NCBI GenBank assembly: GCA_016699555.1
Contig: CP064981.1
Location: 554,558-618,557, forward strand
DNA from: Candidatus Iainarchaeum sp.
GTDB taxonomy: Archaea > Iainarchaeota > Iainarchaeia > Iainarchaeales > VGJJ01
DNA length: 64,000 nucleotides
Direction: 5' to 3'
The position numbers were made by a program, and so were the translations under genes. Below the pieces are notes generated by a model. The model made no database searches. It was not told the DNA's origin and worked only from the letters and a program-made list of their open reading frames with translations. Positions within the stretch are counted from its first letter, which is position 1. Each line of letters opens with the position of its first letter. Of this stretch, positions 9,487 through 39,691 are shown piece by piece.

Positions 9487-9536
9487 GGCCTGTTTCGGCA
9501 GGCCGCCTCGAGAACAGGTGTTGTGGACAACACCTG
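9487..9536 (+). repeat. structured hairpin repeat, family 1, copy D (GC stem with UUUCG-type loop + gcc-tcgagaac + variable hairpin)
   Basis: ggcctgtttcggcaggcc | gcctcgagaac | caggtgttgtggacaacacctg; same architecture as copies at 16800-16852, 23895-23946 and 26513-26565 (rc). Confidence 0.6.
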
Positions 9537-9599
9537 ATGTTTTTTCTTTTTGACTGGTCGTCTAATTTTTCTTTTTTTCCAAAAAAGAAAAAGGAGTGA

Positions 9600-10354: not shown

Positions 10355-10436
10355 TCCTGCTGCCGATGCGACCATTTTGTGCGTATTCGCTCTCGGCGAA
10401 TGCAATATTATAAGCCCTAGCCCCTTTTTGGTGGGT

Positions 10437-13279: not shown

Positions 13280-13280
13280 C

Positions 13281-14309: not shown

Positions 14310-14393
14310 GCCGCTGCCGTAAGACATCATTTATATAGCTGAAGGGGTTTGCTCTCTACAAGATGGGCATGGCCCACCAGGAGATGTGTTAAT

Positions 14394-14852: not shown

Positions 14853-14896
14853 TCGCATAACGGATGGAGCGAGTGCTCCATTCCATTTTTTTTTAG

Positions 14897-15367
14897 GTGA
14901 ATGGCATGCAACCAATACGCGCACGCGGGCAGGGTACCACGGAGTACTTGATTATTTTAGCCATTGTGATTGTGATTGCATTGGTTGTCGTAGGTGTTTT
15001 GGGCGGATTCGGTTCGCAGGGGAGTGCAGTTAGTGCCTCGCAGAGCCGATCCTATTGGACGACGCTCCAGCCCTTTGCTCTAATCGATTGGTCGGTTCCC
15101 GCGAGCGGGACAGGGTCTTTAGTGCTCAAGAACGTTTCGACAAATTCTATTACCATTACCGACGTCAATTGGAATAATTCCGCTGTTGACGTTACGGATG
15201 TGACACTGCTAGCCAATCAGACGACCACGATCAGCAGCTCACGCTTCACCTGCAACAATTCGACCGGACAATCGTATGCATTGCAGGTCGGTTTTACCTA
15301 CAGCACTTCCGCCCTTACCGGCATCAAGTTCTATGGGCGCACTCCCTTAGTGGGAAGCTGCCAGTAA
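14897..15367 (+). CDS. type IV pilin (class III signal peptide), tandem paralog 2
   Basis: N-terminus nearly identical to 14394 (RGQGTTEYLIILAIVIVIALVVVGVLGGFGSQGSA); divergent middle; same C-terminal ...VGSCQ. Confidence 0.85.
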   Translation: MNGMQPIRARGQGTTEYLIILAIVIVIALVVVGVLGGFGSQGSAVSASQSRSYWTTLQPFALIDWSVPASGTGSLVLKNVSTNSITITDVNWNNSAVDVTDVTLLANQTTTISSSRFTCNNSTGQSYALQVGFTYSTSALTGIKFYGRTPLVGSCQ

Positions 15368-15428
15368 TCCACTGCATTGCGTTCTGCGATTAAAAAAAGA
15401 AAAGAATGGAAGCGGGCTTCCGCTCCCA

Positions 15429-15698
15429 TTATTTCATTTCCTTCGCCACGAGCAGGAATCCTATCAACAATAGGGTTTCGGCCAAGAGGTGGCTGAAGAG
15501 CGTGTGGAATACCCCGATGTGCGCCAACACGAACCCGAGCTCGGCGATCGCATAGAACGCAAACAGCGTGCCCCAAGCCCCTTTATTGGAGCTGAACGCC
15601 TTTGATGCCAGCCAAACCCCCACGAGCAATGCGATCAAGTGGATGATGATGTATGCTTCATTGGGCAATAAGTTATAGATTTCCAATCCAAATGCCAT
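15429..15698 (-). CDS. small hydrophobic membrane protein
   Basis: Start chosen at MAFGLEIYN, preceded by ggaggag 6 nt upstream; three predicted TM segments. Confidence 0.4.
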   Translation of the reverse strand: MAFGLEIYNLLPNEAYIIIHLIALLVGVWLASKAFSSNKGAWGTLFAFYAIAELGFVLAHIGVFHTLFSHLLAETLLLIGFLLVAKEMK

Positions 15699-15964
15699 AT
15701 TCTCTCCTCCCATGAATCCGGTCGGGATTCCAAGAAGGGAGTGGCCACTTGAATATAAATCACATGAACATAACAAAACAAAATCAGACAATCAACGTTG
15801 AGGGGTAAGGGAATGGGTAAGAGGAAACGAGGGTCTCCCACGAACGTTTTTATACTTCGAAGCCATACTCATTGCACGTATTGGGAGTTAAGGAGGGAAG
15901 CCATACTGCTGAACGCAGATCCCTGGCTCCCTTCTATTAAATTTGCTGATTCTATACCCTCATT

Positions 15965-16447
15965 TCACGAATACGAAATGGGCTTTCGTTGAATGGGTTC
16001 ATCCCCTTTCTCAACGGTCACATCCACAATACATCCGAAAATGAAAATGCCTTCCGGCGAAGGGATTACCCGTGCGAAAATCTTTCCCCAAAAGATATTC
16101 CTGTCGCGGTCGCGGAGCTGCACGGTCAAGCCCGAAATCTGATAGGACTTCGTCAGCTCTTCCAAGAAACGCGAGCGCTCCACGCTATTGACCCAGAACT
16201 CCGGAGAGAGCAAGGGCTGATTGATGAGGTCGAGCGAATTGAACATATTCGTGAGCACGGGATTCACATAATACACGCGCGCCGAAGAGATGGAGTCCTG
16301 TGCCGTGCAGCGGGCCAAGAAAATACCCCAAGGAGCATTGCGCATGAAGTTGTTGAACTCCGCGTCTTTCAGCTGATTCAGCTGCTCCAACTCCCGAATG
16401 CGCGCCTTGAGCCGAGCCCCTTCACGCAGTCCATCGATCTCTTCCAT
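15965..16447 (-). CDS. PAS-like sensor domain protein
   Basis: Region GIFLARCTAQDSISSARVYYVNPVLTNMFN...WVNSVERSRFLEEL...IFWGKIFARVIPS...IFGCIVDVTVEK fits a PAS fold. The ORF-table start at 16579 would overlap tRNA-Ala, so an internal Met (MEEIDGL) is used. Confidence 0.45.
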   Translation of the reverse strand: MEEIDGLREGARLKARIRELEQLNQLKDAEFNNFMRNAPWGIFLARCTAQDSISSARVYYVNPVLTNMFNSLDLINQPLLSPEFWVNSVERSRFLEELTKSYQISGLTVQLRDRDRNIFWGKIFARVIPSPEGIFIFGCIVDVTVEKGDEPIQRKPISYS

Positions 16448-16564
16448 GCAACCACGCAATCGCTTGCGTGCTATAAACCTGCGCCCGAGGGGGTTATGCC
16501 CATTTTTAAACGATTCCCAACCCCATTCTACTATATTCTGATGAATCTTTTCCTGAAAGATTCC

Positions 16565-16636
16565 GGGCAGGTAGCGCAATGGTAGCGCATCCGCTTCGCA
16601 TGCGGAAGGCTGCGGGTTCGAGTCCCGCCCTGTCCA
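16565..16636 (+). tRNA. tRNA-Ala (anticodon CGC), G3:U70 present, no encoded CCA
   Basis: GGGCAGG-TA-GCGC-AATGGTA-GCGC-A-TCCGC-TTCGCAT-GCGGA-AGGCT-GCGGG-TTCGAGT-CCCGC-CCTGTCC-A. Confidence 0.9.
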
Positions 16637-16639
16637 TAC

Positions 16640-16860
16640 ACCGTTCCGTCGGTGTGGTGCGGGAACAGGGATTGCTGCGCAATCCCTGATTTGATGAACC
16701 TTTATCTAAAGGTTCTGGTGCGGTATCCAGGTGCTGCCAGCAGCACCTGTCCTTTCACGCATCTTTCTCAAAGATGCTTCTGGGTCCAGTCCTGTCCATG
16801 GCCGTTTTCGTCCGGCCGCCCCGAGAACGAGTGATTGCCGTTGCAATCACTCCTTTGACC
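16640..16860 (+). repeat. hairpin-dense structured element, family 1 copy A (most complete; six or more stem-loops)
   Basis: Consecutive perfect hairpins: gggattgctgcgcaatccc; gatgaacctttatctaaaggttc; ccaggtgctgccagcagcacctg; gcatctttctcaaagatgc; ggccgttttcgtccggcc; then gccccgagaac + gagtgattgccgttgcaatcactc. Confidence 0.65.
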
Positions 16861-16873
16861 CCATTGTCAAAAA

Positions 16874-17776
16874 CTACTCGTACACCCACTGCGTGGATTG
16901 GATGACGTTGATGTCTTTTCCCATGATGCTCAATGGCAAGTCATATCCTGCGCGCACGGGCGTCGCATCCGCCGCGGTCTGCCAGCGGATCGAATAATCC
17001 ACTTGCAACGGTGTCATATCGCTGCTATCGTATGGTTGGATGCGCAGGCTTCCTCTATTCTCATCGATCGTGCCAAAGGTCAATGCGATATAGGATGAGG
17101 GAGTGGTGTTGAAATCGATGAGATACGTGTAATCATTGCCCACGCTGCCCCATCCTGTGGCGGTAAAGTCGTGCCCGGAATTGGAGTCCTCGAAGCGAAA
17201 ACGGATGTAGGTGTCTCCGCTCGCGTCGAGCGTCCATGGAGTGAGAGTGACGTATTCGCGGTTCGAGTGGATATTGATATCGATGATTTCGGGAAAATTG
17301 CTCGATTGCTCGGAGTAGATAGTAATACGCGACATATCGATGGGTTGCTTCCACACCGTATTATGGTCCGTCCTCCCGATGATATTCAGGTCTTGCACGA
17401 ATGCATTCAAATCCAGCCACGCCACGATATTGCTATCTTGTCCCAATTTTTGTATCTGGGATTGGTATCGAAGGAGATTCGTATACACGTTCAAATCGCT
17501 CGGCAAGCTACCCCGGAGGAAGAGGTTCACGCCTATATCATTCTGATCCACCACCAGAGATTGATTGAGCAAGGCATTCAAGTCCAAGCGCAGATCCGCG
17601 GATAATTGCGCGGCGCGCGTCTGCTGCCAGACCCGATACTCATTGGCGCGCAGCTCGTGCAAATGACTGGCTTGGAGCTGGGCATACACGACGATGTACA
17701 ATGCCAAGATGAACAATGCAAAACTGAGCACAAATCCTTTTTTGTCAGGAGAAGGTGCAGAGGGAAAGGGAATCAT
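16874..17776 (-). CDS. pilin-like protein (class III signal peptide), last gene of minus-strand pilus operon
   Basis: Start at MIPFPSAPSPDKKGFVLSFALFILALYIVV (charged residues - KG - hydrophobic helix); the ATG overlaps the upstream stop (ATGA). Confidence 0.6.
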   Translation of the reverse strand: MIPFPSAPSPDKKGFVLSFALFILALYIVVYAQLQASHLHELRANEYRVWQQTRAAQLSADLRLDLNALLNQSLVVDQNDIGVNLFLRGSLPSDLNVYTNLLRYQSQIQKLGQDSNIVAWLDLNAFVQDLNIIGRTDHNTVWKQPIDMSRITIYSEQSSNFPEIIDINIHSNREYVTLTPWTLDASGDTYIRFRFEDSNSGHDFTATGWGSVGNDYTYLIDFNTTPSSYIALTFGTIDENRGSLRIQPYDSSDMTPLQVDYSIRWQTAADATPVRAGYDLPLSIMGKDINVIQSTQWVYE

Positions 17777-18219
17777 GCCTGATTCACCCACGTCGTCACG
17801 ATGACTTTGTAGAGATTGGCATCCGGCGGGGAGGAGACGATGACGCCATTGCTCGCGCGCTCTTGTATTCCTGTGGCACTCGTGCACGAGGACTTGGAGA
17901 CGACCAACGTGGGGGCATTCGTGTCAAAATCAGGGTATACGCTCACGCTCGCGCACACGTTCGCGGGCCACGAGTCGAGGAAGGAACGGATCTCCGTGGT
18001 GTTGTTGCCGATGACGGCCTTCGGGATCAAGCGCGATTGCTCGAGCGCAATGCCGGCATAGAATGCCTGCTCGCGCAATCGCGTGCGCTGGCCGAAATCG
18101 ATCCCTTGCTGGGAAATGGTCTCGAATGCGATCCCGATCATCATGAACAACACAAACAGCGCCAGCAGCGCATCCACGGAGATGACGAACCCCTTCTGCT
18201 TTTTTTTCAACGATTTCAT
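17773..18219 (-). CDS. pilin-like protein (class III signal peptide)
   Basis: MKSLKKKQKGFVISVDALLALFVLFMMIGIAF. Confidence 0.65.
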   Translation of the reverse strand: MKSLKKKQKGFVISVDALLALFVLFMMIGIAFETISQQGIDFGQRTRLREQAFYAGIALEQSRLIPKAVIGNNTTEIRSFLDSWPANVCASVSVYPDFDTNAPTLVVSKSSCTSATGIQERASNGVIVSSPPDANLYKVIVTTWVNQA

Positions 18220-18785
18220 GATTCATACACCTGCAGCGTCACCAAGACGGGCTTTCCGTGGTAGACGGAAGAAAATGTGCTGGTACTCACTTTGACCGCA
18301 TCGACGGGAGAGATACCCGCATTCCAAATGATGTTTTTGTTCACGTCCGAGATATAGAAATAAAAATTCTTATCGCCGATGCCCATGCCCACTTTGAGGG
18401 AGCGATAATCATCCACGTTCCAATCGCGGAATTGGGCCAACTTTTGGGGGTCGATTTCTTTTCCGTGATCGATGAGGCCGATCCATGCGACAGCATTCCT
18501 GTCGGAGAGGTATTCCCAATTGGTAGGGTTTCCCGGAGAAAAGATCATCAATTGTGCGAGGCGGTCCGTGACATGATTCAGGCGTTCTCCCTCCGCCGAG
18601 GAGGTGGTTTGAGTAACGAGTTGGTCCGTGAGGGCAAACGTCACGGTAAGCGCGAATAGGAAGACCATCATCGCCAGGAGGGCATCCGATGAGAAGAGTT
18701 GCCCGCGCGCGCGAGAGGGATTAGCGGCCATCATCCTCATCTCCATCCCCTCCGCCGCCTCCACCGTCTTTGCCTCCGCCTTCAT
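18216..18785 (-). CDS. pilin-like protein (class III signal peptide)
   Basis: ...RARGQLFSSDALLAMMVFLFALTVTFAL. True start possibly an internal Met (MRMMAANPSRARGQ). Confidence 0.6.
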   Translation of the reverse strand: MKAEAKTVEAAEGMEMRMMAANPSRARGQLFSSDALLAMMVFLFALTVTFALTDQLVTQTTSSAEGERLNHVTDRLAQLMIFSPGNPTNWEYLSDRNAVAWIGLIDHGKEIDPQKLAQFRDWNVDDYRSLKVGMGIGDKNFYFYISDVNKNIIWNAGISPVDAVKVSTSTFSSVYHGKPVLVTLQVYES

Positions 18786-19200
18786 CGATGCTGGCCTGGG
18801 TTATCTCAGCCGGTCCGATCGTGAGACCATCCGTGCGATGCGTGACGCGGATCAACATGCCATCCGTGAAGGAATTGCTGTCCACCATGATGCTAGGGAT
18901 GGGGCTGATGAGATCATATTCTCCGGCGGAACCATAGAGGTTCTTTCCCTGCACAAAGAAATTCTCATCCACCTGTGCGCGAGGGATGAATGAGACGATG
19001 TGGGTCCCGCTTGGGCTGTGTGCGGCCTGGTAGATGAGCTCCAATATCTTTTCCTGGTTTTGCCGTAACTCGAACAGGTTTTGTCTGGAATTCGCCACTC
19101 CCGCTTGGGTGCTGAAAATATTGATGCTCACGAGCAGGATGACCAAGAGCACGGAGATGATCAGCAGCAATTCTACCGTGACTTGGCCGTGTGCGCGCAT
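18721..19200 (-). CDS. pilin-like protein (class III signal peptide)
   Basis: Start chosen at MRAHGQVTVELLLIISVLLVILLVSINIF; C-terminal Gly-rich tail. Confidence 0.6.
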   Translation of the reverse strand: MRAHGQVTVELLLIISVLLVILLVSINIFSTQAGVANSRQNLFELRQNQEKILELIYQAAHSPSGTHIVSFIPRAQVDENFFVQGKNLYGSAGEYDLISPIPSIMVDSNSFTDGMLIRVTHRTDGLTIGPAEITQASIDEGGGKDGGGGGGDGDEDDGR

Positions 19201-19249
19201 GCCCAGAAAGGGCTTTTTCGGCTTATAATGGATAGCGTTTTTTCCACGA

Positions 19250-21538
19250 TTAGTCGTCGGCCGTAATGGTGATATTTGCATCCATAATCCCATTGGCCTC
19301 CTCGATGATGAACGTATTCACGTTCGAAATCAATATCGCGGAGGGGGGATCCAGGTTACCGGCGTATTGGAATAACACATTGGTCACATAGGTCGTGCTG
19401 AGCAAATCGATAGTGGTATATGGGTTGGAATGCCTGTTGTCCACATTAGCTGCCGTGTTCTTGATGTTGCTCGTATATCTTGTCGGATACCATACCCGCA
19501 CGCGATTGACGGTCCTGGCACCGAAATCGAAATTGAGATCCACGGTGTAAGAGACACTTTGCTCGTTAGAATCGATATGGAATAATAGATTCCCTGTCCT
19601 CGGACTGGAAGGGGTCAATTGGATGTCCGTGATGACCAGCCCGGTCACATTTGTAGCAGCCGGGAAGAACTGAAATGAATTCCCATCTTCTTCGATCGAC
19701 ATGCTGTTGAATGCTTGCGCAGAGTCGGTATTGGAGAGGCCGCTCCAATTGTATGCTTCATCCCTGAATTTGGCCGCAAAATAATAAGTCGGACCAATGT
19801 TCAGGTCGGAGACCGTGATATAGGTAGGATATCCTCCCACGGCCTTGCTGAAATAATAATCATCCACGGGCGTTGCGCTGTTGAATTCAGATTCGTTATC
19901 GATAGAGCTCAGCGAGTAACGCAGATTCGCATCCACGGGAGTCCCGGTAAAATTATCATCCCCGGGAGAAGTGAAATTCAATCGGATTGTGCGGAAATCC
20001 GGTCCAGGGGAGGCGACGAGATTAGTTACCGTTCCGGGAGCAGTCGTATCGAGGAAGCAACCCGTGCCCCAAATGCCGGAAGAATAGACGGACCCATCCG
20101 AAAAAGTGACATGGGATTGGAATTGCTCTCCTTCATCGGAGATATTGCCCGTAAAGTAGAGGAAATTATTCTGGTAAATCCCATTGCCGCTGATATTCAA
20201 GCTGATCGCATTCGTCTCATTATCATCCGCCGCAGGAGAAAAGACGAAATCCCCTCCGCTGCTCCAAAATTCCTCGAGCTGCGCATGATTGGAATCGCAC
20301 GCCCACCATCGCTGCACGCGCAACTGGGATAGAGTAATGGCTCCGGAAGAATTATTCTTGAGCTTGAATCCCTGCACTGTCGTGGTATCCGGGAAGTAGG
20401 CCCCATTCCAGTCCCAAAGGAATGCGCCCGCCTGACCGAATACCTCGAGCTCGATGGGAATCACTTGATTGTTGGCGCCCGAATAATCCGTTACCGCGAG
20501 GCTTCCTAAATAGTGTCCATAACTCGTTCCTCCAGGAACCGTTATGGTGACCGTTTCCGTCGTGCAGCTTTGGCCCGAAAGCGTAGCGATCGTCGCGATG
20601 CTTTCGATCCAATCACCCGCGTTTCCCGAAGAAGGGATGAAAGAAATATTTTTCAGCTCTGCATTGCCCGTGTTGCAGATCTGGATTCCGATCGCGTTGG
20701 AGTCCGCTCCCAGCGTAGTGAAATAGAGCGAGGCCGGGAGGATATTCATGAGCGTGCCGGTGTTGGAAAAGACCTCCACGTTGATGGGGATCGCAAACGT
20801 CTCGACGCGATCCGAGAAGGTCGCAGTGATCGTGAGCGTGCCCGTGTAATTCCCGATGGCGCTGGCCGTAGAGACTGCGTTCAAATCGATATCGAAAGGA
20901 GCGTTGCCGACGATGGTTCCGCTGCTCGGGGAAATGACCGTCGTCACGAGCGTATGCGACCACGAAAGGGAAGCGCTCAGCGTGGCGGAGGAGGAATCGT
21001 GATTCGTCAAGGTGATGCGCGTGGTTTGATTACTGTCGCGCGCCATGGGAAGATAGATGCTCGCGGCCGAAGAAGAGAGCGTATTGGAACCCACATGCAC
21101 CCCGGTAGCGGTCGTGGTCAAGAGCAATTGCTTGGGCCCAAACGTGGTGGGGAGGCTTCCGGTCAGCGTGACGTCGGTGGTGGCAGTAATATCCGTGTCG
21201 TACACGCGCATGACGATGGATTTGCCGCTGAAATAGACATTCGCGGGATCGATTCCCCGGGGGAAATGGATGATGATGCTTTCCTGCGCGCCAATCCCTT
21301 GCGCATTCACGCCATTGATGGCGTCTGCCATCTCCGCTACCGCGATCTGTCCGGTCTTGATGGCCTGCTGTTGCTGCAATTGCAATACGTGCGTCGTGGT
21401 AAAATTCACCAAATATGCGAGGATGACCGTGGCGATCGCCACGGCCACGAGCATCTCTACCGTGCTCTGCCCGCGTGACTTTGTTGGCGGGGAATCGGAT
21501 TCCATATGGGGGAGAGCGGCTTTACCCAATAAAAGCAT
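19250..21538 (-). CDS. giant pilin-like adhesin (762 aa) with class III signal peptide and Ig/FN3-like beta domains
   Basis: N-terminus RGQSTVEMLVAVAIATVILAYLV; repeated beta-rich modules; FN3-like block TVTNLVASPGPDFRTIRLNFTSPGDDNFTG...LRYS...YYFAAKFRDEA. Paralog of 21557-23797. Confidence 0.75.
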   Translation of the reverse strand: MLLLGKAALPHMESDSPPTKSRGQSTVEMLVAVAIATVILAYLVNFTTTHVLQLQQQQAIKTGQIAVAEMADAINGVNAQGIGAQESIIIHFPRGIDPANVYFSGKSIVMRVYDTDITATTDVTLTGSLPTTFGPKQLLLTTTATGVHVGSNTLSSSAASIYLPMARDSNQTTRITLTNHDSSSATLSASLSWSHTLVTTVISPSSGTIVGNAPFDIDLNAVSTASAIGNYTGTLTITATFSDRVETFAIPINVEVFSNTGTLMNILPASLYFTTLGADSNAIGIQICNTGNAELKNISFIPSSGNAGDWIESIATIATLSGQSCTTETVTITVPGGTSYGHYLGSLAVTDYSGANNQVIPIELEVFGQAGAFLWDWNGAYFPDTTTVQGFKLKNNSSGAITLSQLRVQRWWACDSNHAQLEEFWSSGGDFVFSPAADDNETNAISLNISGNGIYQNNFLYFTGNISDEGEQFQSHVTFSDGSVYSSGIWGTGCFLDTTAPGTVTNLVASPGPDFRTIRLNFTSPGDDNFTGTPVDANLRYSLSSIDNESEFNSATPVDDYYFSKAVGGYPTYITVSDLNIGPTYYFAAKFRDEAYNWSGLSNTDSAQAFNSMSIEEDGNSFQFFPAATNVTGLVITDIQLTPSSPRTGNLLFHIDSNEQSVSYTVDLNFDFGARTVNRVRVWYPTRYTSNIKNTAANVDNRHSNPYTTIDLLSTTYVTNVLFQYAGNLDPPSAILISNVNTFIIEEANGIMDANITITADD

Positions 21539-21556
21539 GCCTTGTAAGGGATGCGG

Positions 21557-23797
21557 CTAGGCGAAGCGAAGCGTAAACTCGTCAATGCCATTCATGCTCG
21601 TCACATAGAAGGTATTCGGCTTCACGATGCCCGTCAGGCTGCCGACCAGGTCGAGGCACTGGTAGGTATAGCTCTCGCAGGTGGCGATATTTTCTTCATA
21701 ACTCATCAGGTTGACCGGGGTCAAGTCATTCATGAGGCCGGTATTCCAGTCATATCCCATTTCTTCTATGCCGGTGAACTCGGTATAGTCGAATTGGATG
21801 AATGTGATGGGGTGCTCATCCGACTCGCCGAAATTGATATCCATCAACCACGTCCCTGTACCGGCTTCTTGACCATAATTATCCTCGACGATCGCAATCG
21901 CAATATTGCGGACGGGGAACGTGCCTTCACTGAAGACCACGTTCTGCAGGATGAAAGACGAAAGCGTATTCGAATCCATGAAATGCGGATACTGGGTTCC
22001 GCTCTCGGTAATGGTCACTTCATCCGTGGGAGTGGCGGAGGGGCTGTTGGTATACGCATAGTGCGGCACCTCATCCTCGAAGCGCCCACCATAGTACCAG
22101 GTTTCCCCAAGCGGCATCCCGAATACGTGCATGCTGACGTCCGTGTCTCCGGTTGTGATGTTGAAATCACCATAAAATAATGCATCGGCTAAAGCCCACG
22201 TCGGTTCGTCATTCACGCGACCGCTCCGATAGCGGAAGGCCGCATCCGCCACTCTGCCGGAATAATCGTCATCTCCGGGGATGGTGAACTCCAAGAGCAC
22301 CGACCCCGGGTAATCGCCTGTGCCCGCAGTGAGATTAGTGATCGTCGCGGGAGGCGTCACATCTGCGGCGCATCCGCCTAGTCCAAAAACGGATGAGGTG
22401 TATGTGGTTCCGTCCGAGAAAGTGAGCGCTGCGACGAATTGCTCATTCTCATCATTGATGCGCCCGCTGAAATGGAGGGTATTATTCGTGTAATAGGACA
22501 ACACGGGCATGATGAAATCATTGATATCGCTTGCAACTCCGGCTGCGCTGCTCCCGGTGAAGCGAGTGCTGCCGTTGAATATGATGGACGTGAGCGCATT
22601 CTGGTTGGAATCGCAATTATTCCACCCGTCGAGGGTAAAACTGGTGATATTGAGGGGATTGGATCCCGTGTTGGCCATGCCATATTCGATAATGGAGGTG
22701 TTCGTGAGATAGGCGACATTCCAATCCCACACGAATGCGCCGCTCATCCCTAAGACGTTCACCGTCAAGGGAATGGCAACGGTATTGGTGCCATCGAAAT
22801 CACGCAGGACGAGGGTGCCATAATAGGTGCCTAATCCCGTTCCATTGGGTGGAGAGATCGTGACTTGCACATCGGTGCATTCTTGCCCGGTCAAGGAGGC
22901 AATATCCGCGATGCCCTGCACCCAATCCCCTGCATTGCCCGTGGAGGGAGTGAAGGAAATGGATTTGATCGGGGTGTTGCCGAGATTGCATAATTGGATT
23001 AATCCCGAGTTGGAATCATCCCACAACGTATTCACGGTCAGCGATGTGGGGTAGGGCGTGAGCAGCGTGCCAGTGTCCACCAACACCTCGACATCGATGG
23101 GGATGCGCAATGATTCTAGGTGGTCAGAAAAACTAGCGGAAACCTGATAGGACCCGGTGTAATTCCCAACGGCCAGGGGGCCTGCATACACATTCACGTC
23201 GCGGTTGACATCCGCGGCAGACGAAATAGAAAAAGGCGTGGTATCCGATGCGCTCGTCACGAGCGTGGGATTCCATTGCAGGGTCGGCGTGATGAGTGCG
23301 CTCGTCGAGGAGGTGCTCCGCAATTGGATGTTCGCCGTGCTGTTCTGATCGCGCGCCACGGGGAGATAGATGAATGCAGGAGAAGCCGACAGCGTGAGCG
23401 TGCCGACGCTCACATACCCATCCGCCGCACGGATGTTGATGCGTTGCGTCCCGGCTGTTGTGGGGAGCGAGCCCGTGATATACGGGATGGCCGTCCCCAC
23501 GATATCGGACTTGTACACCCGCAACCGGATGGATTTGTTGGCGATGCTCGAGAGCGAGGCGTCGATGCCGGCGGGCCATATCACGGTGACCTGCTTGGCG
23601 GCCCCGGGGCCCTGCGCATACACTTCGTTGATTCCGTTGATCAACTCATTCATCGAAGCCTGCGCCGTCTTTTGCGCTTGGGTCTCTTGGAGGATGGCGA
23701 TCTGATTGCCCACGAATCCCACGAGACTGGCTACGACGATGAGCCCGATGGCCATGATGACCATCAACTCGACTGTCGTCTGGGCCTTGCGCTGCAT
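21557..23797 (-). CDS. giant pilin-like adhesin (746 aa) with class III signal peptide; first gene of operon
   Basis: N-terminus MQRKAQTTVELMVIMAIGLIVVASLVGFV. Collinear with 19250-21538 (for example LCNLGNTPIKSISFTPSTGNAGDWVQGIADIASLTGQECT against ICNTGNAELKNISFIPSSGNAGDWIESIATIATLSGQSCT). Confidence 0.75.
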   Translation of the reverse strand: MQRKAQTTVELMVIMAIGLIVVASLVGFVGNQIAILQETQAQKTAQASMNELINGINEVYAQGPGAAKQVTVIWPAGIDASLSSIANKSIRLRVYKSDIVGTAIPYITGSLPTTAGTQRINIRAADGYVSVGTLTLSASPAFIYLPVARDQNSTANIQLRSTSSTSALITPTLQWNPTLVTSASDTTPFSISSAADVNRDVNVYAGPLAVGNYTGSYQVSASFSDHLESLRIPIDVEVLVDTGTLLTPYPTSLTVNTLWDDSNSGLIQLCNLGNTPIKSISFTPSTGNAGDWVQGIADIASLTGQECTDVQVTISPPNGTGLGTYYGTLVLRDFDGTNTVAIPLTVNVLGMSGAFVWDWNVAYLTNTSIIEYGMANTGSNPLNITSFTLDGWNNCDSNQNALTSIIFNGSTRFTGSSAAGVASDINDFIMPVLSYYTNNTLHFSGRINDENEQFVAALTFSDGTTYTSSVFGLGGCAADVTPPATITNLTAGTGDYPGSVLLEFTIPGDDDYSGRVADAAFRYRSGRVNDEPTWALADALFYGDFNITTGDTDVSMHVFGMPLGETWYYGGRFEDEVPHYAYTNSPSATPTDEVTITESGTQYPHFMDSNTLSSFILQNVVFSEGTFPVRNIAIAIVEDNYGQEAGTGTWLMDINFGESDEHPITFIQFDYTEFTGIEEMGYDWNTGLMNDLTPVNLMSYEENIATCESYTYQCLDLVGSLTGIVKPNTFYVTSMNGIDEFTLRFA

Positions 23798-23894
23798 AGC
23801 CCAAAGGACCTTTTTGGGGCTTAAAATGGATTTGCTTGCACGGCAGCTTGTGCCATTTAAAACCTTTAGCGGGGCTTTTTGGTATTATAGACTC

Positions 23895-23972
23895 GCCGCT
23901 TTCGAGCGGTGGCGCCGAGAACGAGGAATTGCCGTTGCAATTCCTCCTTGGATGAACCCTTCTCAAGGGTTC
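23895..23972 (+). repeat. structured hairpin repeat, family 1 copy B, abutting the tRNA-Ser 5' end
   Basis: gccgctttcgagcggt | ggcgccgagaac | gaggaattgccgttgcaattcctc | cttggat | gaacccttctcaagggttc; the last hairpin ends 1 nt before the tRNA. Confidence 0.65.
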
Positions 23973-23973
23973 T

Positions 23974-24057
23974 GCACCGATGGCAGAGTGGTCTAATGCG
24001 CCGGTCTGGAAAGCCGGTCTCCTCACGGAGGCACGAGTTCGAATCTCGTTCGGTGCG
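23974..24057 (+). tRNA. tRNA-Ser (anticodon GGA), long variable arm, no encoded CCA
   Basis: GCACCGA...CCGGT-CTGGAAA-GCCGG...ACGAG-TTCGAAT-CTCGT-TCGGTGC-G. Confidence 0.85.
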
Positions 24058-24191
24058 AAGTTCATCTCATTCTTCTGCGCTTGCGAACACGGATGAATGA
24101 TTGATTCCTATCAGAATAATTGCCCACCCGAAACAGTTCGAGTTTTTCTCTGGAATGCGTCATTAAATAGTTTGGGGGATATCCCACGTAC

Positions 24192-25827: not shown

Positions 25828-25853
25828 CTTTTTCTTTTTAAAAAAAGAAAAAG
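25828..25853. terminator. perfect 12-bp A/T inverted repeat (ctttttcttttt-aa-aaaaagaaaaag) immediately 3' of tRNA-Arg
   Basis: Strand-symmetric hairpin flanked by T/A runs. A similar element (tttttctttttttccaaaaaagaaaaagg, 9565-9595) lies 3' of tRNA-Ser(UGA). Candidate oligo-T/hairpin terminators. Confidence 0.5.
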
Positions 25854-25914
25854 TAGTGCGCAGTCAAAAAGAAAAAACAGAAGGTGGTGCGGCACAATAC
25901 CACTTCGCAGGCGC

Positions 25915-26388
25915 TTATTTCTTGAAATGCAGATGCAGCTTCCGGCGCAGCCATCTCTTTGTGCTGCGGATGGGGTGTTCAATGAATTGTCCCACGCGCG
26001 TCTTCTCGAACGCATGCCATCCCAGCTTGATCAAGCGAACAAAACGAAAGGCATTCCCAAATGGCACTACCGAAAGAATGGTCATCCACTTCGTCTTGAT
26101 GAAATGGATCTTATTGCGCGCCACCAAGAAAATCAACAACACCTCGGTGATTAGGATCACTTCGGCCGCGATGTCCGCCAAATGGATCAATTCCAGCGTT
26201 GCCTTGCCCGGGTGGAAAAAAATTTCCAATGCGAACGTCATGGCCAGAAACAGCACGCACGCCAGCCCCACCATCTCCCAAATCACAAAGAAAGGAGAAT
26301 GCCTATGATGCGCCCAGGAGTGAGATTTAGCATGAGCTTCTTTACTTTCTCCCTTGCGCGCATGAATGGAAGCACTTGCATGTGTCAT
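25915..26388 (-). CDS. hypothetical membrane protein (2-3 TM helices; ion-channel-like architecture)
   Basis: Hydrophobic helices VGLACVLFLAMTFAL and IAAEVILITEVLLIFLVA. No selectivity-filter motif seen. Confidence 0.4.
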   Translation of the reverse strand: MTHASASIHARKGESKEAHAKSHSWAHHRHSPFFVIWEMVGLACVLFLAMTFALEIFFHPGKATLELIHLADIAAEVILITEVLLIFLVARNKIHFIKTKWMTILSVVPFGNAFRFVRLIKLGWHAFEKTRVGQFIEHPIRSTKRWLRRKLHLHFKK

Positions 26389-26421
26389 ATCGGAAGGACG
26401 AAAAACCGCTATTTAATCCCC

Positions 26422-26565
26422 GAACCCTTGAGAAGCCTTTTTGGGAAAAAGGCTTGCGAAAAACGGTTTTCGCTAACCTTTTCTGAAAAGGTTAAAGGGT
26501 TCATCCAAGGAAGCCAGATGCTGTAAAACAGCACCTGGCCTCGGTATCGCCGGTCGAAAACGGCG
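26422..26565 (-). repeat. structured hairpin repeat, family 1 copy C (reverse orientation) with about 60-nt insertion of three A/T hairpins, in the 5' leader of the ATPase gene
   Basis: rc reads cgccgttttcgaccggcg | ataccgag | gccaggtgctgttttacagcatctggc | ttccttggat | gaaccctt [taaccttttcagaaaaggtta gcgaaaaccgtttttcgc aagcctttttcccaaaaaggctt] ctcaagggttc. Confidence 0.65.
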
Positions 26566-26602
26566 TAATACTTAAATGCCCGCAAATGGTTGGAATAGGC
26601 AT

Positions 26603-29600
26603 ATGGCTGAAGAAAATCCTTCCCCCAATGAAGGACGCGTGCGTAAAATCAAGGGGCATAAGGATCCCTTTGAAGCCGCACTCGAAGACACTTCTACACA
26701 ATCAGGTGCTCCTCTGATACTCGACCTCGGTGAAACTCCTCCCGAAGAAGATGAAACCGCACTCCAAGGACGCATGGCCTCCCGTGCACGCCGAAGGCAG
26801 GCAGCAGAAGATGACGATGGCGACGAGGATGGCGATGACGACGATGGAGAAGGCGACGACGAAGAGGAACCTCCTATTCCGGATGATGAAGAACCCGACG
26901 ACGATGAGGAAGGAAATCCCGAGGATGGGCTCGATGACATCCAGGATGGAGATAATCCCGACGAAGTCACTCCCAGCGTGGACACACGCACACGCTCCCG
27001 CAAGACAAAAGCAGCGCCCGCGGCAGCGGAAGGAGAAGAAGCGGTTGAGCCGGAATCGGAATGGAATGAAGAGCACGACTTGCAGGACTTACTGCACGAA
27101 GAAGGGGTAACCGAAGAAGGAATCGACTCCATCGACGAGCTCCATCCGGGAATGGAAGAAGACGCTGCGGCGAATGAGAACCCAAGCGATGAACCACTGC
27201 CCGAAGACGCCGCACCGCGCAAGAGACAACTCCTGCACGCTAAAACGCTCAGCCCCTTGCACGAGAAACTCAAAGAACAGCTCCTGCTCAAAGCCCGCGC
27301 GCACGAGATGCCTGTCACATCCCCTTCGGTGAAATTGGAATTGCTCGAGCTGCCAGAGAAAAAACAGGCATTCATCGGGAGAAAGAAAAGCATCCTCCAA
27401 AAATCAGGACTCGATGGCGCACTCTATATCGGAAAAGTCCAAGACGATGAAAAGTACGGCGACTATTCGCTCTACCTCGACTCGCTCAACCCCCACGTCG
27501 TATTCATCTGCGGATCCCGCGGAAGCGGAAAGTCGTACTTGTTAGGCGTTATCGCCGAGGAATTGGCGCTGCACAACAAAGACGTCGGCGTGGTCGTCGT
27601 GGACCCCGTGGGGGTATTCTGGTCCATGAAATTCCCCAACAAAGAAGAACGCGAAGTCAAGACGCTCAACGATTTCAATCTCATGCCGCAGGGACTGGAA
27701 AACCTCCGCGTGTTCATTCCCGAAGGCAGCAAGAACGAGACGCCCAAGAACACATATGACGGGCTATTCTCCATTCCCCCTGCCATGCTCACCAGCGAAG
27801 ACTGGGCGCTCACCTTCGGAATGGAACGCTTTTCTCCAACGGGATTGCTATTGGAAAAAGCCCTCAAGAAAGTCGAAACCGGATTCAAAACAATCGAAGG
27901 AGAAAAAGTTCCCGGAAAGAAAAACAAATTCAGCCTGGACGATTTGATCCTGTGCCTGGAAAAGGACTTCGAACTCAACTCCCGCGAACGCGGATACAAA
28001 CCCGATTCCGTGCGCGCGCTCGTCTCGCGCTTTGAAGCCGCCAAGGCATGGGGAATATTTTCCGAGAAAGGGACCCCGCTCAGCGAGATCTCGCGCGAGG
28101 GACAGCTCACGGTCATCGACACCAGCTTCTTGGACGATTCCGTCACCGCACTCGTCATCGGAATTTTGGCAAGAAGATTGCTGGCCGCGCGCAAAGTGCA
28201 AACGCGGAGGGAAGCCGCACAGAAATTCAAATCCGATGAGGCGGATGACCTGCTCGAGACCGAGATACCTCCCACATGGCTGTTCATCGATGAAGCGCAC
28301 ACACTCATCCCCAGCGGGAACGTCAAGACCCCCGCGACGAATGCGATCGTGGAATACGTGAAACAAGGACGCAGGCCCGGGTGCTCGCTCGTGTTCGCGA
28401 CCCAGCAACCCTCTGCCATCGACACGCGCGTGCTGTCGCAGTTGGATGTGATCGTGGCCCACAAACTCATTTTCGACGATGACATCAAGGCCATCATGAA
28501 GCGTACTCCCACCATTATCCCCATGAAATACAAGCACCCCAATTTCCTGAAGACGCTTCCGGTAGGAATCGGTTTGACAGGCGACCGACGCGAAGAGACC
28601 TCGCGCGCATTCGTGCTGAAAGTGCGCCCGCGCATGTCGCAGCACGAAGGAAGAGATGCCGAAACGGGCGAGCACAAGCAACAGCTCTCCGAGAAAGAGG
28701 TCATGAAGCTCGCCATCGAGGTCATCTTCTCCAAGCTCGAGAAAGAAGGGAAATTGGAAAAAGAAGAAGTGGAACAGCTCGTGCAAACCCTCAATTCCAA
28801 GTACCGGAGCAAGATCATGCTATCGGACGTGCTGGATGGCCTCGAGGAAAAGGGCGCGCGCATCGATGCCAAGACCATGGAAGTGATCTCTCCCACGTAC
28901 ATCGAGGTCAAGATACCCGTTCCCGCGGAAAAAGAAGCGACCGCCAAGACTCCCCAGCAGAAGGCACAAGAACTCCAGAAACTCATCGAAGAACCGCAAG
29001 CCGAAGAAGAAGAGACCAGTTTGCGCGCGTTGCCCGTGTCTTTCTCCAACGCTCAGATTATCCAGAAACTCGAAAAGGCAGCGAAGAAGAGCATGTTCGG
29101 ATTCGGCGGGACGCAGGAGAAGCTCCAGGAAGTATCGCTGCACTACAAGCCCATCTATCATGTGGAATACCGCCAATTCACCGGCAAGACCACTTTTATC
29201 CAACGCTCGTGCGATGTGGATGCCGAGAAAGGGGAGTTCGTCCACTACCTCAACAACCAATTCGTCTTATCCAATGGCTTGAGCGAGGTTGGTTCGCTGA
29301 GCAAGCAAGAAGGGCAACTCCTGCATACGATTGCGCGTAAATCCACTACCATCCCACAGCTCGCTTCTCAACTGGACATGAGCGAAAAAGACGTCAAGCG
29401 CGCCTTGACGAAACTCTACGACCAAAAGCTCATCGATGTCACGGGAAGCAAGGAAAAACCAGTGGTGCAGCTCTCCAAGTCCCTCGACTTGCCGTTCTCC
29501 GGAAGCGAAAAAGCGCTATCCTCGCTCGCACCGCTCAAGCTCGTGCACGTGCCCAAGATCAAACCCATTCGCGCACGTATCAGCGCGGATGAATTGAATG

Positions 29601-29752
29601 CGTTGCTTTCCACGCTGTGGCCCAACACCAACATCATGCACGTCTCCGAAATCTATCAACCCGTGATCGAGGCCACGCTCATGAATGCAAAGACAAATGA
29701 ATTCCGCAAGGTCCTATTGGACGGATTCACGGGAAACATTCTTGAAGAGTAG
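26603..29752 (+). CDS. HerA/FtsK-superfamily (DUF87-type) P-loop ATPase with acidic disordered N-terminus and C-terminal wHTH
   Basis: Walker A FICGSRGSGKSYLLG, Walker B WLFIDEAHTLIP, VFATQQP motif. N-terminal 250 aa is D/E-rich (DEDGDDDDGEGDDEEEPPIPDDEEPDDDEE). C-terminal TrmB-like HTH (LLHTIARKSTTIPQLASQLDMSEKDVKRALTKL). TATA-like tacttaaat at 26568-26576 favours ATG 26603 over 26576. Confidence 0.8.
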   Translation: MAEENPSPNEGRVRKIKGHKDPFEAALEDTSTQSGAPLILDLGETPPEEDETALQGRMASRARRRQAAEDDDGDEDGDDDDGEGDDEEEPPIPDDEEPDDDEEGNPEDGLDDIQDGDNPDEVTPSVDTRTRSRKTKAAPAAAEGEEAVEPESEWNEEHDLQDLLHEEGVTEEGIDSIDELHPGMEEDAAANENPSDEPLPEDAAPRKRQLLHAKTLSPLHEKLKEQLLLKARAHEMPVTSPSVKLELLELPEKKQAFIGRKKSILQKSGLDGALYIGKVQDDEKYGDYSLYLDSLNPHVVFICGSRGSGKSYLLGVIAEELALHNKDVGVVVVDPVGVFWSMKFPNKEEREVKTLNDFNLMPQGLENLRVFIPEGSKNETPKNTYDGLFSIPPAMLTSEDWALTFGMERFSPTGLLLEKALKKVETGFKTIEGEKVPGKKNKFSLDDLILCLEKDFELNSRERGYKPDSVRALVSRFEAAKAWGIFSEKGTPLSEISREGQLTVIDTSFLDDSVTALVIGILARRLLAARKVQTRREAAQKFKSDEADDLLETEIPPTWLFIDEAHTLIPSGNVKTPATNAIVEYVKQGRRPGCSLVFATQQPSAIDTRVLSQLDVIVAHKLIFDDDIKAIMKRTPTIIPMKYKHPNFLKTLPVGIGLTGDRREETSRAFVLKVRPRMSQHEGRDAETGEHKQQLSEKEVMKLAIEVIFSKLEKEGKLEKEEVEQLVQTLNSKYRSKIMLSDVLDGLEEKGARIDAKTMEVISPTYIEVKIPVPAEKEATAKTPQQKAQELQKLIEEPQAEEEETSLRALPVSFSNAQIIQKLEKAAKKSMFGFGGTQEKLQEVSLHYKPIYHVEYRQFTGKTTFIQRSCDVDAEKGEFVHYLNNQFVLSNGLSEVGSLSKQEGQLLHTIARKSTTIPQLASQLDMSEKDVKRALTKLYDQKLIDVTGSKEKPVVQLSKSLDLPFSGSEKALSSLAPLKLVHVPKIKPIRARISADELNALLSTLWPNTNIMHVSEIYQPVIEATLMNAKTNEFRKVLLDGFTGNILEE

Positions 29753-30546: not shown

Positions 30547-31509
30547 ATGGACTACTCCACCTACACGGCCCAGAACTCCATGTTCGTACCCGGATTAGAC
30601 GGCAAACCCAAACTGGATGTCATGCTGCTCGTGCAGAACCTCCTTGTACTCACTTCCATCATCTTCCTCTACTGGCTCATCGACGCCCAAGCCATGCGCT
30701 TGAATGCATCTCCCATCGGCATATTCCGTCCGGGAGGAATCCTCCTCACCTTCTTCCTCTTGGCCGCGATCGGGATGCTGTGGCGCACGGTCGCACAGCT
30801 GTTTGAACATTATCCCAACGTCCGCAAATTCCTGAAGTGGGGAATATTCTTGCTGTTCGTATTCTTGGCGGTAGGCGCGTACTTCTTCCCCCAACCCTTC
30901 GTGACAGCTTACTATTCTCCCGCGCTCCAGCAGCACATCGACAGGCTGGAGCCGGTGCGCTACATCTATGGGTATCATGCCCAAATCCCCAAAGACACGC
31001 TAACTCCCTCTTCCACGACGGCGAGCGTTTCGGATAAGTACAAGTTGACCGCGCAAGAGATTACGGTCAAGCTGCACGATGCCGTCAATTTCGAAAGGAG
31101 AAAATTGGGATTGAATGCACTTATCTACGATACGCGCCTCGCAAGCATTGCGGAAGCGCACTCCAATGACATGCTGGCGCGCCACTATTTCGATCATGTC
31201 TCGCCCGAAGGGAATACGTTCATTTCGCGCTATGAGCGGGCAGGTTATACCTGTGAACTCATCGTTGGAAACGAAACCATCCGCGGAGGAGAGAATCTCG
31301 CGGAAAGCGTCACGTACAACAGCACCTACGCCAATGGGCTGATTTCCGACTACAAGTCCGTCGAAGAGATCGTGAATCAGACGATCGGCATCTGGATGAA
31401 CTCCACCTCGCACCGCAGCAACATCCTCCATCCCTATTGGAGAGGAGAAGGGATCGGGGTCGCGATCGAACCCGATGGCAAAATACTCATCACGGAAAAC
31501 TTCTGTTAG
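30547..31509 (+). CDS. membrane-anchored CAP/SCP/PR-1 (YkwD-like) domain protein
   Basis: N-terminal TM helices; C-terminal AHSNDMLARHYFDHVSPEG...GENL...IWMNSTSHRSNILHPYW matches CAP-domain signatures. Confidence 0.75.
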   Translation: MDYSTYTAQNSMFVPGLDGKPKLDVMLLVQNLLVLTSIIFLYWLIDAQAMRLNASPIGIFRPGGILLTFFLLAAIGMLWRTVAQLFEHYPNVRKFLKWGIFLLFVFLAVGAYFFPQPFVTAYYSPALQQHIDRLEPVRYIYGYHAQIPKDTLTPSSTTASVSDKYKLTAQEITVKLHDAVNFERRKLGLNALIYDTRLASIAEAHSNDMLARHYFDHVSPEGNTFISRYERAGYTCELIVGNETIRGGENLAESVTYNSTYANGLISDYKSVEEIVNQTIGIWMNSTSHRSNILHPYWRGEGIGVAIEPDGKILITENFC

Positions 31510-31555
31510 CCGCACCCTGCGGCTGTGCGGAAGTTAGGGTGTTTTTCAAACACCC
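31509..31555 (+). repeat. bipartite hairpin element, family 2 copy 1, immediately 3' of the CAP-domain gene
   Basis: gccgcaccctgcggc ... gggtgtttttcaaacaccc; second copy at 35307-35353 has an identical first hairpin and a covarying second hairpin. Confidence 0.55.
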
Positions 31556-31612
31556 ACACGCTACTCTACATAATAGTTTAAGAGCTCTTTTCCGCGAGAA
31601 AGAGGTATTGGA

Positions 31613-32380: not shown

Positions 32381-32446
32381 TGTGAGAAGCTGACAGGTAT
32401 TGCCATGCAATACCTGGATTTCGCAGCGGCCAGCCGAAACTGGCCA

Positions 32447-32529
32447 CGCAGTGGGTGGGATTCGAACCCACGAGCCCGTAAAGGCCCGGTTTTCGAGACC
32501 GGTGGATTAGACCGCTTTCCTACCACTGC
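32447..32529 (-). tRNA. tRNA-Ser (anticodon CGA), long variable arm, no encoded CCA
   Basis: rc reads GCAGTGG...CCGGT-CTCGAAA-ACCGG-GCCTTTACGGGCTC-GTGGG-TTCGAAT-CCCAC-CCACTGC-G. Confidence 0.85.
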
Positions 32530-35272: not shown

Positions 35273-35306
35273 GCGTTAAGGGTTAACGAATCAGGAGAAT
35301 AAAAAA

Positions 35307-35353
35307 GCCGCACCCTGCGGCTGCGCGGGGGTTAGGGTATCTTTCAGATACCC
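35307..35353 (-). terminator. bipartite hairpin element, family 2 copy 2; on the minus strand the gccgca-ccc-tgcggc hairpin is followed by TTTTTTATT (intrinsic-terminator-like), 3' of rpl44e
   Basis: gccgcaccctgcggc ... gggtatctttcagataccc; rc gives hairpin + cttttttatt directly downstream of the eL42 stop. Confidence 0.5.
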
Positions 35354-35361
35354 ATACAGAA

Positions 35362-35819: not shown

Positions 35820-36599
35820 ATGATACACGCATTCGGGGAAGCCATTGCATTCATGCGCACACGCCCTATCGTAGTGGTGGGGATGGCCATCATCATTCTC
35901 CTTCAAGCCGGAATCGCCCTCTTGCAATTGCCGGTGGCCAGCTATTTCCTTTCCGTGCTTGACTTCAACACGCTCATAGATGCATTTGGGGGGATCCAGC
36001 TCGCGGGGTTCTTCATCCTCTTGCTCATCGGCATGATCGTCAACTTCACCGGATTCTTGTGGGTCGCACAGCATGTCAAGGCATGGAAGCTGCACAGCGG
36101 AGAAAAGACATCCCTGCAGCTGATCAAGTCTGCTGGTCTCGTGGCCGCTGCCATCATCCTCGTGGGCGGGCTCATGCTCGGACTCACGTGGGTCCTCACC
36201 GCCATCGTCGATGCGATCGGATTCTTCGCCTTGCTCTTATTGGGAGTCATGGTCCTGCTGGCGTTCTATCTCACCATCAAATTCCTGTTCGTCTTGCCAC
36301 TCATGGGATTCGGATTGGGGTTGAAGCAAGCGCTCCAGCAATCCTGGCACATCACCCAAGAACATTTCTTCGCAAGCGCGGCATTGCTGATCGGGCTCTT
36401 CATCGTTACGGCGGTCATCGATTTCATCACCCAAACGCTTTTGGTGGGGATCGACGCGGACATCATCGTGGTGCCGCTCAACTTCATCATCGCCGTGCTC
36501 CTGAGCACTTATAGCGCTGCCGTGGTGGCGTGCGCCATTCCCTTGCAGGAAGTGGACACCATTCCCCATCCCAAACACGCACACGGGAAAGCCAAATGA
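35820..36599 (+). CDS. polytopic membrane protein (hypothetical)
   Basis: Start chosen at MIHAFGEAIAF; 6-7 hydrophobic helices. Confidence 0.5.
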   Translation: MIHAFGEAIAFMRTRPIVVVGMAIIILLQAGIALLQLPVASYFLSVLDFNTLIDAFGGIQLAGFFILLLIGMIVNFTGFLWVAQHVKAWKLHSGEKTSLQLIKSAGLVAAAIILVGGLMLGLTWVLTAIVDAIGFFALLLLGVMVLLAFYLTIKFLFVLPLMGFGLGLKQALQQSWHITQEHFFASAALLIGLFIVTAVIDFITQTLLVGIDADIIVVPLNFIIAVLLSTYSAAVVACAIPLQEVDTIPHPKHAHGKAK

Positions 36600-36641
36600 T
36601 GACACGTATGCGAATGGACCATTGCACGAGCTGAAACCCAC

Positions 36642-39659: not shown

Positions 39660-39691
39660 AAACGTAGATTCTTGGACACTTCTCTATTGCA

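Follow-up and report, generated by a model that had tools for sequence, protein, structure and literature searches.

The closest described counterparts of the locus analysed here are the modular and palindromic repeats of bacteria and archaea and the elements that integrate at tRNA genes. First, the BOX repeats of Streptococcus pneumoniae are built of modules (boxA-boxB(n)-boxC) whose number varies between copies, and ERIC copies carry insertions of ~70 bp at fixed internal sites. Second, REPs and BIMEs are short, intergenic, lineage-specific palindromes that often follow genes, that stand singly, in tandem or inverted, and that preserve their pairing through compensatory changes; REPs have been reported in archaea as well as bacteria (PMC12306157) and, as far as the account in PMC3733652 goes, carry a GTAG/CGTC tag. 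Third, MITEs are small, non-autonomous, intergenic and taxon-specific, nested MITE copies are known, and high MITE densities have been reported for DPANN genomes (PMC11602168). Finally, foreign DNA that lies between a complete and a partial copy of a tRNA is a known signature of integration at tRNA genes, and the elements integrated in this way are 9-23 kb long (PMC9897764).

Within the window, that is, the whole stretch of 64,000 nucleotides that was analysed, the segment at 26422-26565 (hereafter the focal copy) belongs, as one copy, to a family of modular palindromic repeats that is specific to a clade of tiny DPANN archaea. It behaves like REP/BIME, BOX/ERIC or MITE repeats and yet lacks defining features of both REPs and MITEs. 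The family shares with REPs and BIMEs all the habits listed above, but it differs from them in its three to four distinct hairpins in a fixed order, its conserved single-stranded motifs and its copies that lie flush with tRNA genes, and it is without the REP tag as that account gives it: the 5' flanks of the copies (TATTAC, AGACTC, TCCATG, TGCTAA, CCGAA and TGCGT) have no tag in common. A Pfam search of the ~65 ORFs in the window, which makes up 6% of the 1.05-Mb contig, found no RAYT (HUH tyrosine transposase) domain and no transposase, integrase or HUH-nuclease domain of any kind. BOX and ERIC are modular like the element, although they are bacterial and unrelated to it in sequence, and the element's own insertions lie exactly in a hairpin loop. 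The likeness to MITEs extends to small size, lack of autonomy, intergenic position and restriction to one taxon, whereas the ends of the element (GCCG..., ...GGTTC) do not form inverted repeats and the copies have no flanking duplication in common; nor do their boundaries show a shared target sequence, and outside converted stretches the copies are 60-70% alike. As for the elements integrated at tRNA genes, the partial tRNA duplicate is found at neighbouring copies of the family but not at the focal one, and the blocks that such duplicates bracket measure 43-147 nt rather than 9-23 kb and are without an integrase.

The focal copy is read on the minus strand and comprises the following parts.

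26422-26565, minus strand: the element, modules i-iv, with the loop of hairpin iv interrupted by the inserted block
26549-26564, minus strand: module i, hairpin GCCGTTTTCGACCGGC (GCCG-TTTTCGAC-CGGC), with the family-invariant loop motif TTTCG
26539-26548, minus strand: module ii, linker ATACCGAGGC / GATACCGAGG, which carries the conserved CGAG(R)(R) motif
26514-26538, minus strand: module iii, 10-bp hairpin CCAGGTGCTG-TTTTA-CAGCATCTGG
26503-26513, minus strand: linker CTTCCTTGGAT, with the family motif TTGATGA / TGGATGA
26495-26502, minus strand: 5' arm of hairpin iv, GAACCCTT, which forms an 8-bp stem with AAGGGTTC
26433-26494, minus strand: inserted block TAACCTTTTCAGAAAAGGTTA / GCGAAAACCGTTTTTCGC / AAGCCTTTTTCCCAAAAAGGCTT, in the loop of hairpin iv
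26422-26432, minus strand: loop CTC and 3' arm AAGGGTTC of hairpin iv

The initial annotation had seen three extra hairpins in a conserved hairpin loop of a minus-strand repeat copy. Sequence and fold agree that they are real, and the hairpin insertion is far beyond chance. A covariance model of modules i-iii scores the focal copy at 63 bits (E ~5e-17), both strands fold into a four-way junction (z = -7.4 and -6.6 as RNA), and the inserted block folded as DNA reaches z = -8.0, with 0 of 200 shuffles as good. Short reads that were assembled separately (Logan, SRR11674035; L001) contain the whole 215-nt intergenic sequence without a difference, which is evidence against an artefact of assembly.

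Throughout the family the order of parts is hairpin i (loop TTTCG), CGAGAA, hairpin iii, TTGATGA and hairpin iv. The stems covary, with 96.5% of cells paired and both sides changing in 11 of the 15 pairs, against 32-49% paired in slid controls, and RNAalifold independently recovers three hairpins. Five of the six pairs of module i change on both sides among 16 copies, and its loop reads TTTCG in 15 of the 16 copies aligned; module iii shows covariation in eight of its nine pairs and pairing in 98.6% of its cells. Hardly any variation is seen in the unpaired motifs TTTCG, CGAG(R)(R) and T(T/G)GATGA. Pairing in the stems is almost purely Watson-Crick (220 pairs, with 4 G-T and 2 A-C) and has no strand bias; an excess of G-T over A-C was considered as evidence for RNA, but counts of 4 vs 2 are uninformative. 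The CGAG(R)(R) motif of module ii is complementary to the loop of module i, and judged by this complementarity the two are a possible pseudoknot: the candidate pairing UUUCG/CGAGA is kept in 79 of 80 cells, includes a conserved U-G pair, and shows one double compensatory change, in the copy at 16636-16692.

Several more familiar identities were considered for these folds and set aside. A tRNA or tRNA-like gene was rejected for the four-way junction, as ARAGORN and Rfam find no match and the loops have just 3-4 nt. Module i is not a decayed T-arm, given that its loop is 6-8 nt long, the equivalent of A58 is lost and TTTCG is too conserved for a pseudogene. A C/D box or k-turn reading of UGAUGA fails on the absence of CUGA (box D) and on the Watson-Crick pairing of the last GA in stem iv, and a hammerhead-like reading of CUGAUGA / GAA on the wrong order of helices and the absence of an Rfam match.

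The repeat search that uncovered the family first linked positions 16801 and 23895. The covariance model then returned six full copies in the window (E 1e-15 to 1e-20), which are the focal copy, where the match begins at 26568, and the following five.

9484-9540, plus strand: copy i-iii, between the gene at 7884-9455 and tRNA-Ser(TGA)
16636-16715, plus strand: copy i-iv, directly after tRNA-Ala, within a 147-nt inserted block
16797-16856, plus strand: copy A (i-iii), just past a duplicated tRNA-Ala 3' end
23891-23972, plus strand: copy B (i-iv), which ends one base before tRNA-Ser(GGA) (23973-24058)
32390-32448, minus strand: copy i-iii, which starts at the first base after tRNA-Ser(CGA)

All six core copies in the 64 kb are intergenic and four stand beside tRNA genes; copies occupy 4 of the 10 tRNA-flanking intergenic regions vs 1 of the 42 others (hypergeometric p ~0.0035), with boundaries 0-4 nt from the mature tRNA ends. 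The sites, which are the few that a compact genome can accommodate, include positions flush with tRNA gene ends, positions right after stop codons, and one between two divergent core promoters. Two more copies, in the same range of E, were found in the relative L002, and in 35 other Iainarchaeota/DPANN loci the model gave nothing beyond weak matches in L004 and L015. The family is found in this genome and in close relatives of it, with only a weak presence in a single, more distant relative (L004). Viral contigs, scanned by pattern, yielded one chance match inside a coding region and nothing else. Rfam 15 reports only tRNAs above its thresholds, and even at E <= 10 nothing credible over copy B, copy C or the stack after tRNA-Ala.

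A two-hairpin repeat, AGCCGCACCCTGCGGCT ... GGGTRTYTTTCARAYACCC, is found at 31508-31559 and 35306-35357, its two copies being 85% identical. The copy at 31508-31559 follows a CAP-domain gene, a position at which a regular i-iii copy stands in L002, and because it occupies the site of that copy the two-hairpin repeat may be a variant of the i-iv family.

The window holds further features of note. At 3853-5199 lies a gene for a 448-aa protein with sigma-70 regions 2 and 4 (E 1e-7 to 1e-17), regions that are unexpected in an archaeal genome, and an ORF at 619-1005 with a 'putative phage metallopeptidase' domain (E 1e-18) adjoins the leucyl-tRNA synthetase gene. A type IV pilus or archaellum-like locus spans 9773-23797, with class III signal peptides (9773, 14394, 14906 and 18721), a FlaI/T2SSE ATPase (10437-12392), a T2SSF protein (13281-14309) and large paralogues without Pfam domains (19250-21538 and 21557-23797); a tandem repeat of 188 nt runs within the pilin-like genes (14409/14927). 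The region 44030-56161 contains genes of the bacterial-type MEP pathway of isoprenoid synthesis (DXR 48988-50157, IspD 50514-51227, DXS 52976-54832 and GcpE/IspG 54908-56161), beside which stand a geranylgeranyl-reductase-like gene (46531-47781) and a GHMP kinase gene (44030-44923). Since archaea normally use the mevalonate route, the cluster looks like a transfer from bacteria. The cumulative GC skew has its minimum and changes sign at ~36000-40000, near the SMC gene (36642-39659), and this region may be a replication origin or terminus.

The focal copy lies between two divergent genes, whose starts and core promoters are as follows.

26603-29752, plus strand: HerA/DUF87 ATPase gene (Pfam), with ATG 26603 used by gene callers in L001 and L045
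26569-26578, plus strand: TATA box of the ATPase gene, TACTTAAATG, which ends 24 nt before ATG 26603
26409-26416, minus strand: TATA box of the 157-aa gene, TTAAATAG, 20 nt before ATG 26388, conserved
25915-26388, minus strand: gene for a 157-aa membrane protein with a weak Ion_trans match, divergent from the ATPase gene

The initial annotation had pointed to a TATA-like TACTTAAAT beyond the element and a start codon 38 nt from it, and both are borne out, at 26569-26577 and at ATG 26603, respectively. The formal opening of the ORF, ATG 26576, is rejected as the start, as it lies inside the TATA box and L002 has an in-frame TAG between the two ATGs. Proteins encoded beside the element are 100% identical to IPJ89_03180 and IPJ89_03210 of a Candidatus Iainarchaeum MAG with a contig of 1.05 Mb, and relatives of the ATPase are all from Iainarchaeota or other DPANN archaea. 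The TATA box of the ATPase gene is conserved as GGGCATTTAAGTATTA in all relatives whose locus was compared. Over 55 genes of the window the A+T content peaks at -29..-24 from the ATG, which suggests that mRNAs are mostly leaderless, and the best TATA-like 8-mers of window genes start at -32..-29; the distance from TATA box to ATG in the ATPase gene is typical of the genome. The element therefore fills the space between the TATA boxes of the two divergent genes, upstream of both core promoters, and it abuts both TATA boxes in all relatives that carry it, while its own orientation, on the minus strand, faces the 157-aa gene. From this position it follows that the element is not the 5' leader of the ATPase gene, as had been proposed: it lies wholly upstream of the ATPase TATA box, in a genome of leaderless geometry. 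The same geometry disposes of the worry that the insertion might be a standard terminator of an upstream minus-strand gene at 25915-26388. This gene starts at 26388, beside the element, and has its stop at 25915; the block cannot terminate a gene that begins there, and the objection does not apply.

The ATPase / 157-aa gene pair is conserved among relatives, which allows orthologous spacers to be compared.

L002 and L046: a single i-iv element with a plain hairpin iv
L045: a single element, somewhat decayed
L048: a second unit (i-iii, linker and 5' half of iv) within the loop of iv, 65 nt
L050: two tandem copies, of which the second bears one more i-type hairpin and has a loop of iv longer by ~11 nt
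L049: i-iii, with another hairpin in last place
L040 (outgroup, protein 53% identical): element absent, 77-nt spacer

The comparison of orthologous loci that had been suggested shows the element to be present without the block in five related lineages (L002/L046, L045, L048, L049 and L050). It follows that the element at the ATPase locus is old and that the block is lineage-specific. The loop of hairpin iv at this locus has been shown to have received three independent insertions or duplications (62, 65 and ~11 nt).

The block itself consists of three perfect hairpins (26494-26474, 26473-26456 and 26455-26433) whose stems measure 9, 7 and 10 bp and which follow one another directly, and each has runs of T4-T5 on both strands. 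The insertion stands as first reported, although it counts 62 nt and not 60. CTT is found on either side of the one copy of the block, so that its boundary is ambiguous by 3 nt. The flanks had been likened to copy B, and here the match proved to be of two kinds: with copy B of the window it is exact in stretches of 17 and 14 nt, and with copy B of L042, in the tRNA-Ser(GGA) leader of that relative, the 30 nt left after removal of the block (CTTCCTTGGATGAACCCTTCTCAAGGGTTC) are identical throughout, 30/30. By BLAST against the window and 41 other loci there is no second copy of the block. Its first hairpin, however, matches 18 of 21 nt of a hairpin, CAACCTTTTGAGAAAAGGTTG, in the block inserted at tRNA-Ser(GGA) of L042. 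A discrete, nested insertion of small hairpins, as originally put forward, fits the data, given that the block is lineage-specific and lies exactly in the loop of hairpin iv, that other insertions have entered loop iv (L048 and L050) and that the L042 hairpin is so similar.

Evidence that copies exchange sequence comes from comparisons across loci. The linker and hairpin iv of the focal copy agree with copy B of L042, which is not orthologous, in a way that the orthologous loci do not, and the first copy of L050 shares 32/32 nt with the tRNA-Ala trailer copy of the window, whereas between these genomes the neighbouring gene has an identity of only 35-65% at its fourfold-degenerate sites. Repeat copies thus appear to exchange sequence or to be replaced. 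Copies of the same genome are more alike than orthologous copies, and the homology between copy B and the focal copy continues beyond module i, on its upstream side, for 27 nt or more, with a score that 3 of 2000 shuffles equal.

Turnover is most evident at the tRNA loci, where orthologous sites have copies that are present, absent, inverted, tandemly duplicated or stacked. Upstream of tRNA-Ser(GGA), modules i-iv stand in forward orientation in the window and in L042, the latter with an additional insertion of 64 nt that combines 21 nt duplicated from the tRNA 5' end with the hairpin already mentioned; in L043 modules i-iii are inverted and flush with the tRNA, and in L044 there is no copy. 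The trailer of the same tRNA has a copy in L042 and in L043 and none in the window, and that of tRNA-Ala has 237 nt of stacked modules in the window vs 11 nt in L044. The 3' end of tRNA-Ser(TGA) is duplicated 113 nt downstream (9467-9486, 18/20 nt) and that of tRNA-Ala 147 nt downstream (16784-16799, 14/16 nt), both matches being unique in the 64 kb. At these two loci the duplicate and the intact tRNA bracket a module block, the duplicates measuring 16-21 nt with that of L042 included (2632-2652 there, minus strand). Hairpin-module blocks bracketed by tRNA-end duplicates look like miniature or decayed integrated elements. The focal copy adjoins no tRNA gene and so has no bracketing duplicate. 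A stretch of 14 nt at 25901-25914 that resembles the 3' end of tRNA-Arg has 11 equally good matches in the window and is not significant alone, and a 14-nt match to the end of tRNA-Ser(CGA) at 16883-16896 is conserved coding sequence.

Some further features of these tRNA flanks deserve mention. A type iv hairpin after GATGA ends at position -1 of tRNA-Ala (16543-16563) and of tRNA-Ser(GGA) (23954-23972); in L044 this hairpin is degenerate at tRNA-Ala and missing at tRNA-Ser. Substrates of RNase P do not usually have their -1 base paired. The GATGAAC of the tRNA-Ser(GGA) leader (23950-23956) is complementary over 7 nt to the GTTCATC of its trailer (24061-24067), by which leader and trailer could pair. 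A second trailer motif is common to tRNA-Ser(TGA) and tRNA-Arg (9528-9592 and 25828-25889) and comprises a perfect palindrome rich in T, TTTTTCTTTTT..AAAAAGAAAAA, after which come CAGTCAAAAAGAAAAAACA and a hairpin. The T-rich palindrome in these two trailers is probably a bidirectional oligo-T terminator; after tRNA-Arg, L002 has a plain T8 run in its place. The sequence CAGTCAAAA is found also in the block inserted at tRNA-Ser(GGA) of L042 (~2594-2602 of that locus).

Taken as a whole, we consider it somewhat better than an even bet that the focal copy is a resident member of a clade-specific, non-autonomous, modular palindromic DNA repeat. Spread and uniformity of the family would on this hypothesis result from processes at the level of DNA: insertion by integrase-like recombination at tRNA genes, homogenisation by gene conversion between repeat copies, and growth by duplication or insertion at extruded hairpins, through template switching or break repair. 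The 62-nt block, with its three hairpin modules, would have been inserted recently and nested within the copy, as the latest addition. At the ATPase locus the element would lie outside both mRNAs, transcribed as part of neither, and would serve at most as a spacer or insulator, the gap from TATA box to TATA box having grown from ~25 nt in the outgroup to ~150 nt. In its favour are the differences in presence, orientation and stacking of copies between orthologous sites, the duplicated tRNA ends, the likeness of copies within a genome, the almost purely Watson-Crick stems and the site of the element beyond both transcription units. Against the hypothesis stand the absence of terminal inverted repeats, of a consistent target-site duplication and of a target motif at the copy boundaries, the lack of a recombinase among the ~65 ORFs of the window, the want of a second copy of the block in the loci compared, and the retention of the element at the ATPase locus in at least five lineages. 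Furthermore, the stems covary around unpaired motifs (TTTCG, CGAG and TGATGA) that do not change, and insertions are confined to loops, which would also be expected of selection on a functional folded RNA.

This last possibility is the first to be weighed. The family could be a functional structured RNA, with a pseudoknot and two hairpins, that acts in processing, 3'-end protection or termination in tRNA flanks and 3' UTRs; the element at the ATPase locus would then be transcribed away from the shared TATA box, and the block would be a tolerated expansion segment of a loop. We regard this as a tentative alternative, well short of probable. Besides the conserved single-stranded motifs and covarying stems, the complementarity between the loop of module i and CGAGA, with its 79 of 80 paired cells, its double compensatory change and its U-G pair, favours RNA. 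All three indels at the ATPase locus lie in the loop of hairpin iv and leave its stem intact, the copies in tandem gene contexts (L002 6909, L004 3123 and the trailers of L042 and L043) have the orientation of the upstream gene, and the motifs of the family persist even though fourfold sites are near saturation. On the other side, Rfam offers no match at a limit as lenient as E <= 10, just 4 of 238 cells hold G-U pairs, and the element of L043 is inverted within the same tRNA leader. The leader and trailer copies are absent altogether in sister species and hence dispensable, and the sole copy sampled in the genome of L044/L045 is the most decayed. Finally, the upstream flank of the sole TATA box that faces the element better suits the opposite direction, and a transcription start would follow hairpin i.

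A bolder form of the DNA-repeat hypothesis is that the modules are miniature, non-autonomous integrative elements of DPANN archaea that land at tRNA ends and in loops and that are read as folded single strands by a dedicated recombinase. Recognition would proceed through the i-loop/CGAGA pseudoknot and TGATGA, and the loops of earlier copies would serve as landing pads. We think this unlikely, but if it is true, archaeal repeats would have a way of targeting both tRNA ends and hairpin loops that has not been described for them.

A bidirectional terminator or insulator, in which the three inserted T-rich hairpins would halt stray divergent or antisense transcription between the promoters, appears more doubtful still. 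Oligo-T is an archaeal signal of transcription termination, perfect T-rich palindromes do occur at convergent tRNA/gene junctions in the window (9566-9592 and 25828-25853), and one of the inserted hairpins with its T run fits a terminator-like pattern. Nevertheless, five related lineages are without the block and no co-oriented gene reads into the region; a scan for terminators found 3 sites vs 1.5 expected, which carries no weight. A role of the element as 5' leader of the DUF87/HerA ATPase gene, or in shaping the promoter of that gene, is very improbable. It does lie 3 nt from the ATPase TATA box, with module i covering the BRE and the positions upstream, but it remains wholly on the far side of a TATA box that is 24 nt from the ATG in a leaderless genome, and the element is missing altogether from an outgroup in which this gene pair is present. 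Perfect palindromes may come from errors of long-read assembly, but chance or artefact can practically be dismissed in view of the identical separate assembly, the E of ~5e-17, the z of -7.4 to -8.0 and the homologues in five other lineages.

Of the readings weighed above we thus retain a resident DNA repeat as the one we favour. The compact genomes of DPANN archaea still carry fast-evolving hairpin repeats, which reshape tRNA flanks and promoter spacers between sister species. In practice, recognition of the family serves the annotation of tRNA leaders and trailers, reduces false calls of structured leaders and provides strain markers. Should the pseudoknot be real, and tRNA ends and hairpin loops indeed be targeted, these repeats would give access to an unknown recombination system in uncultured organisms.
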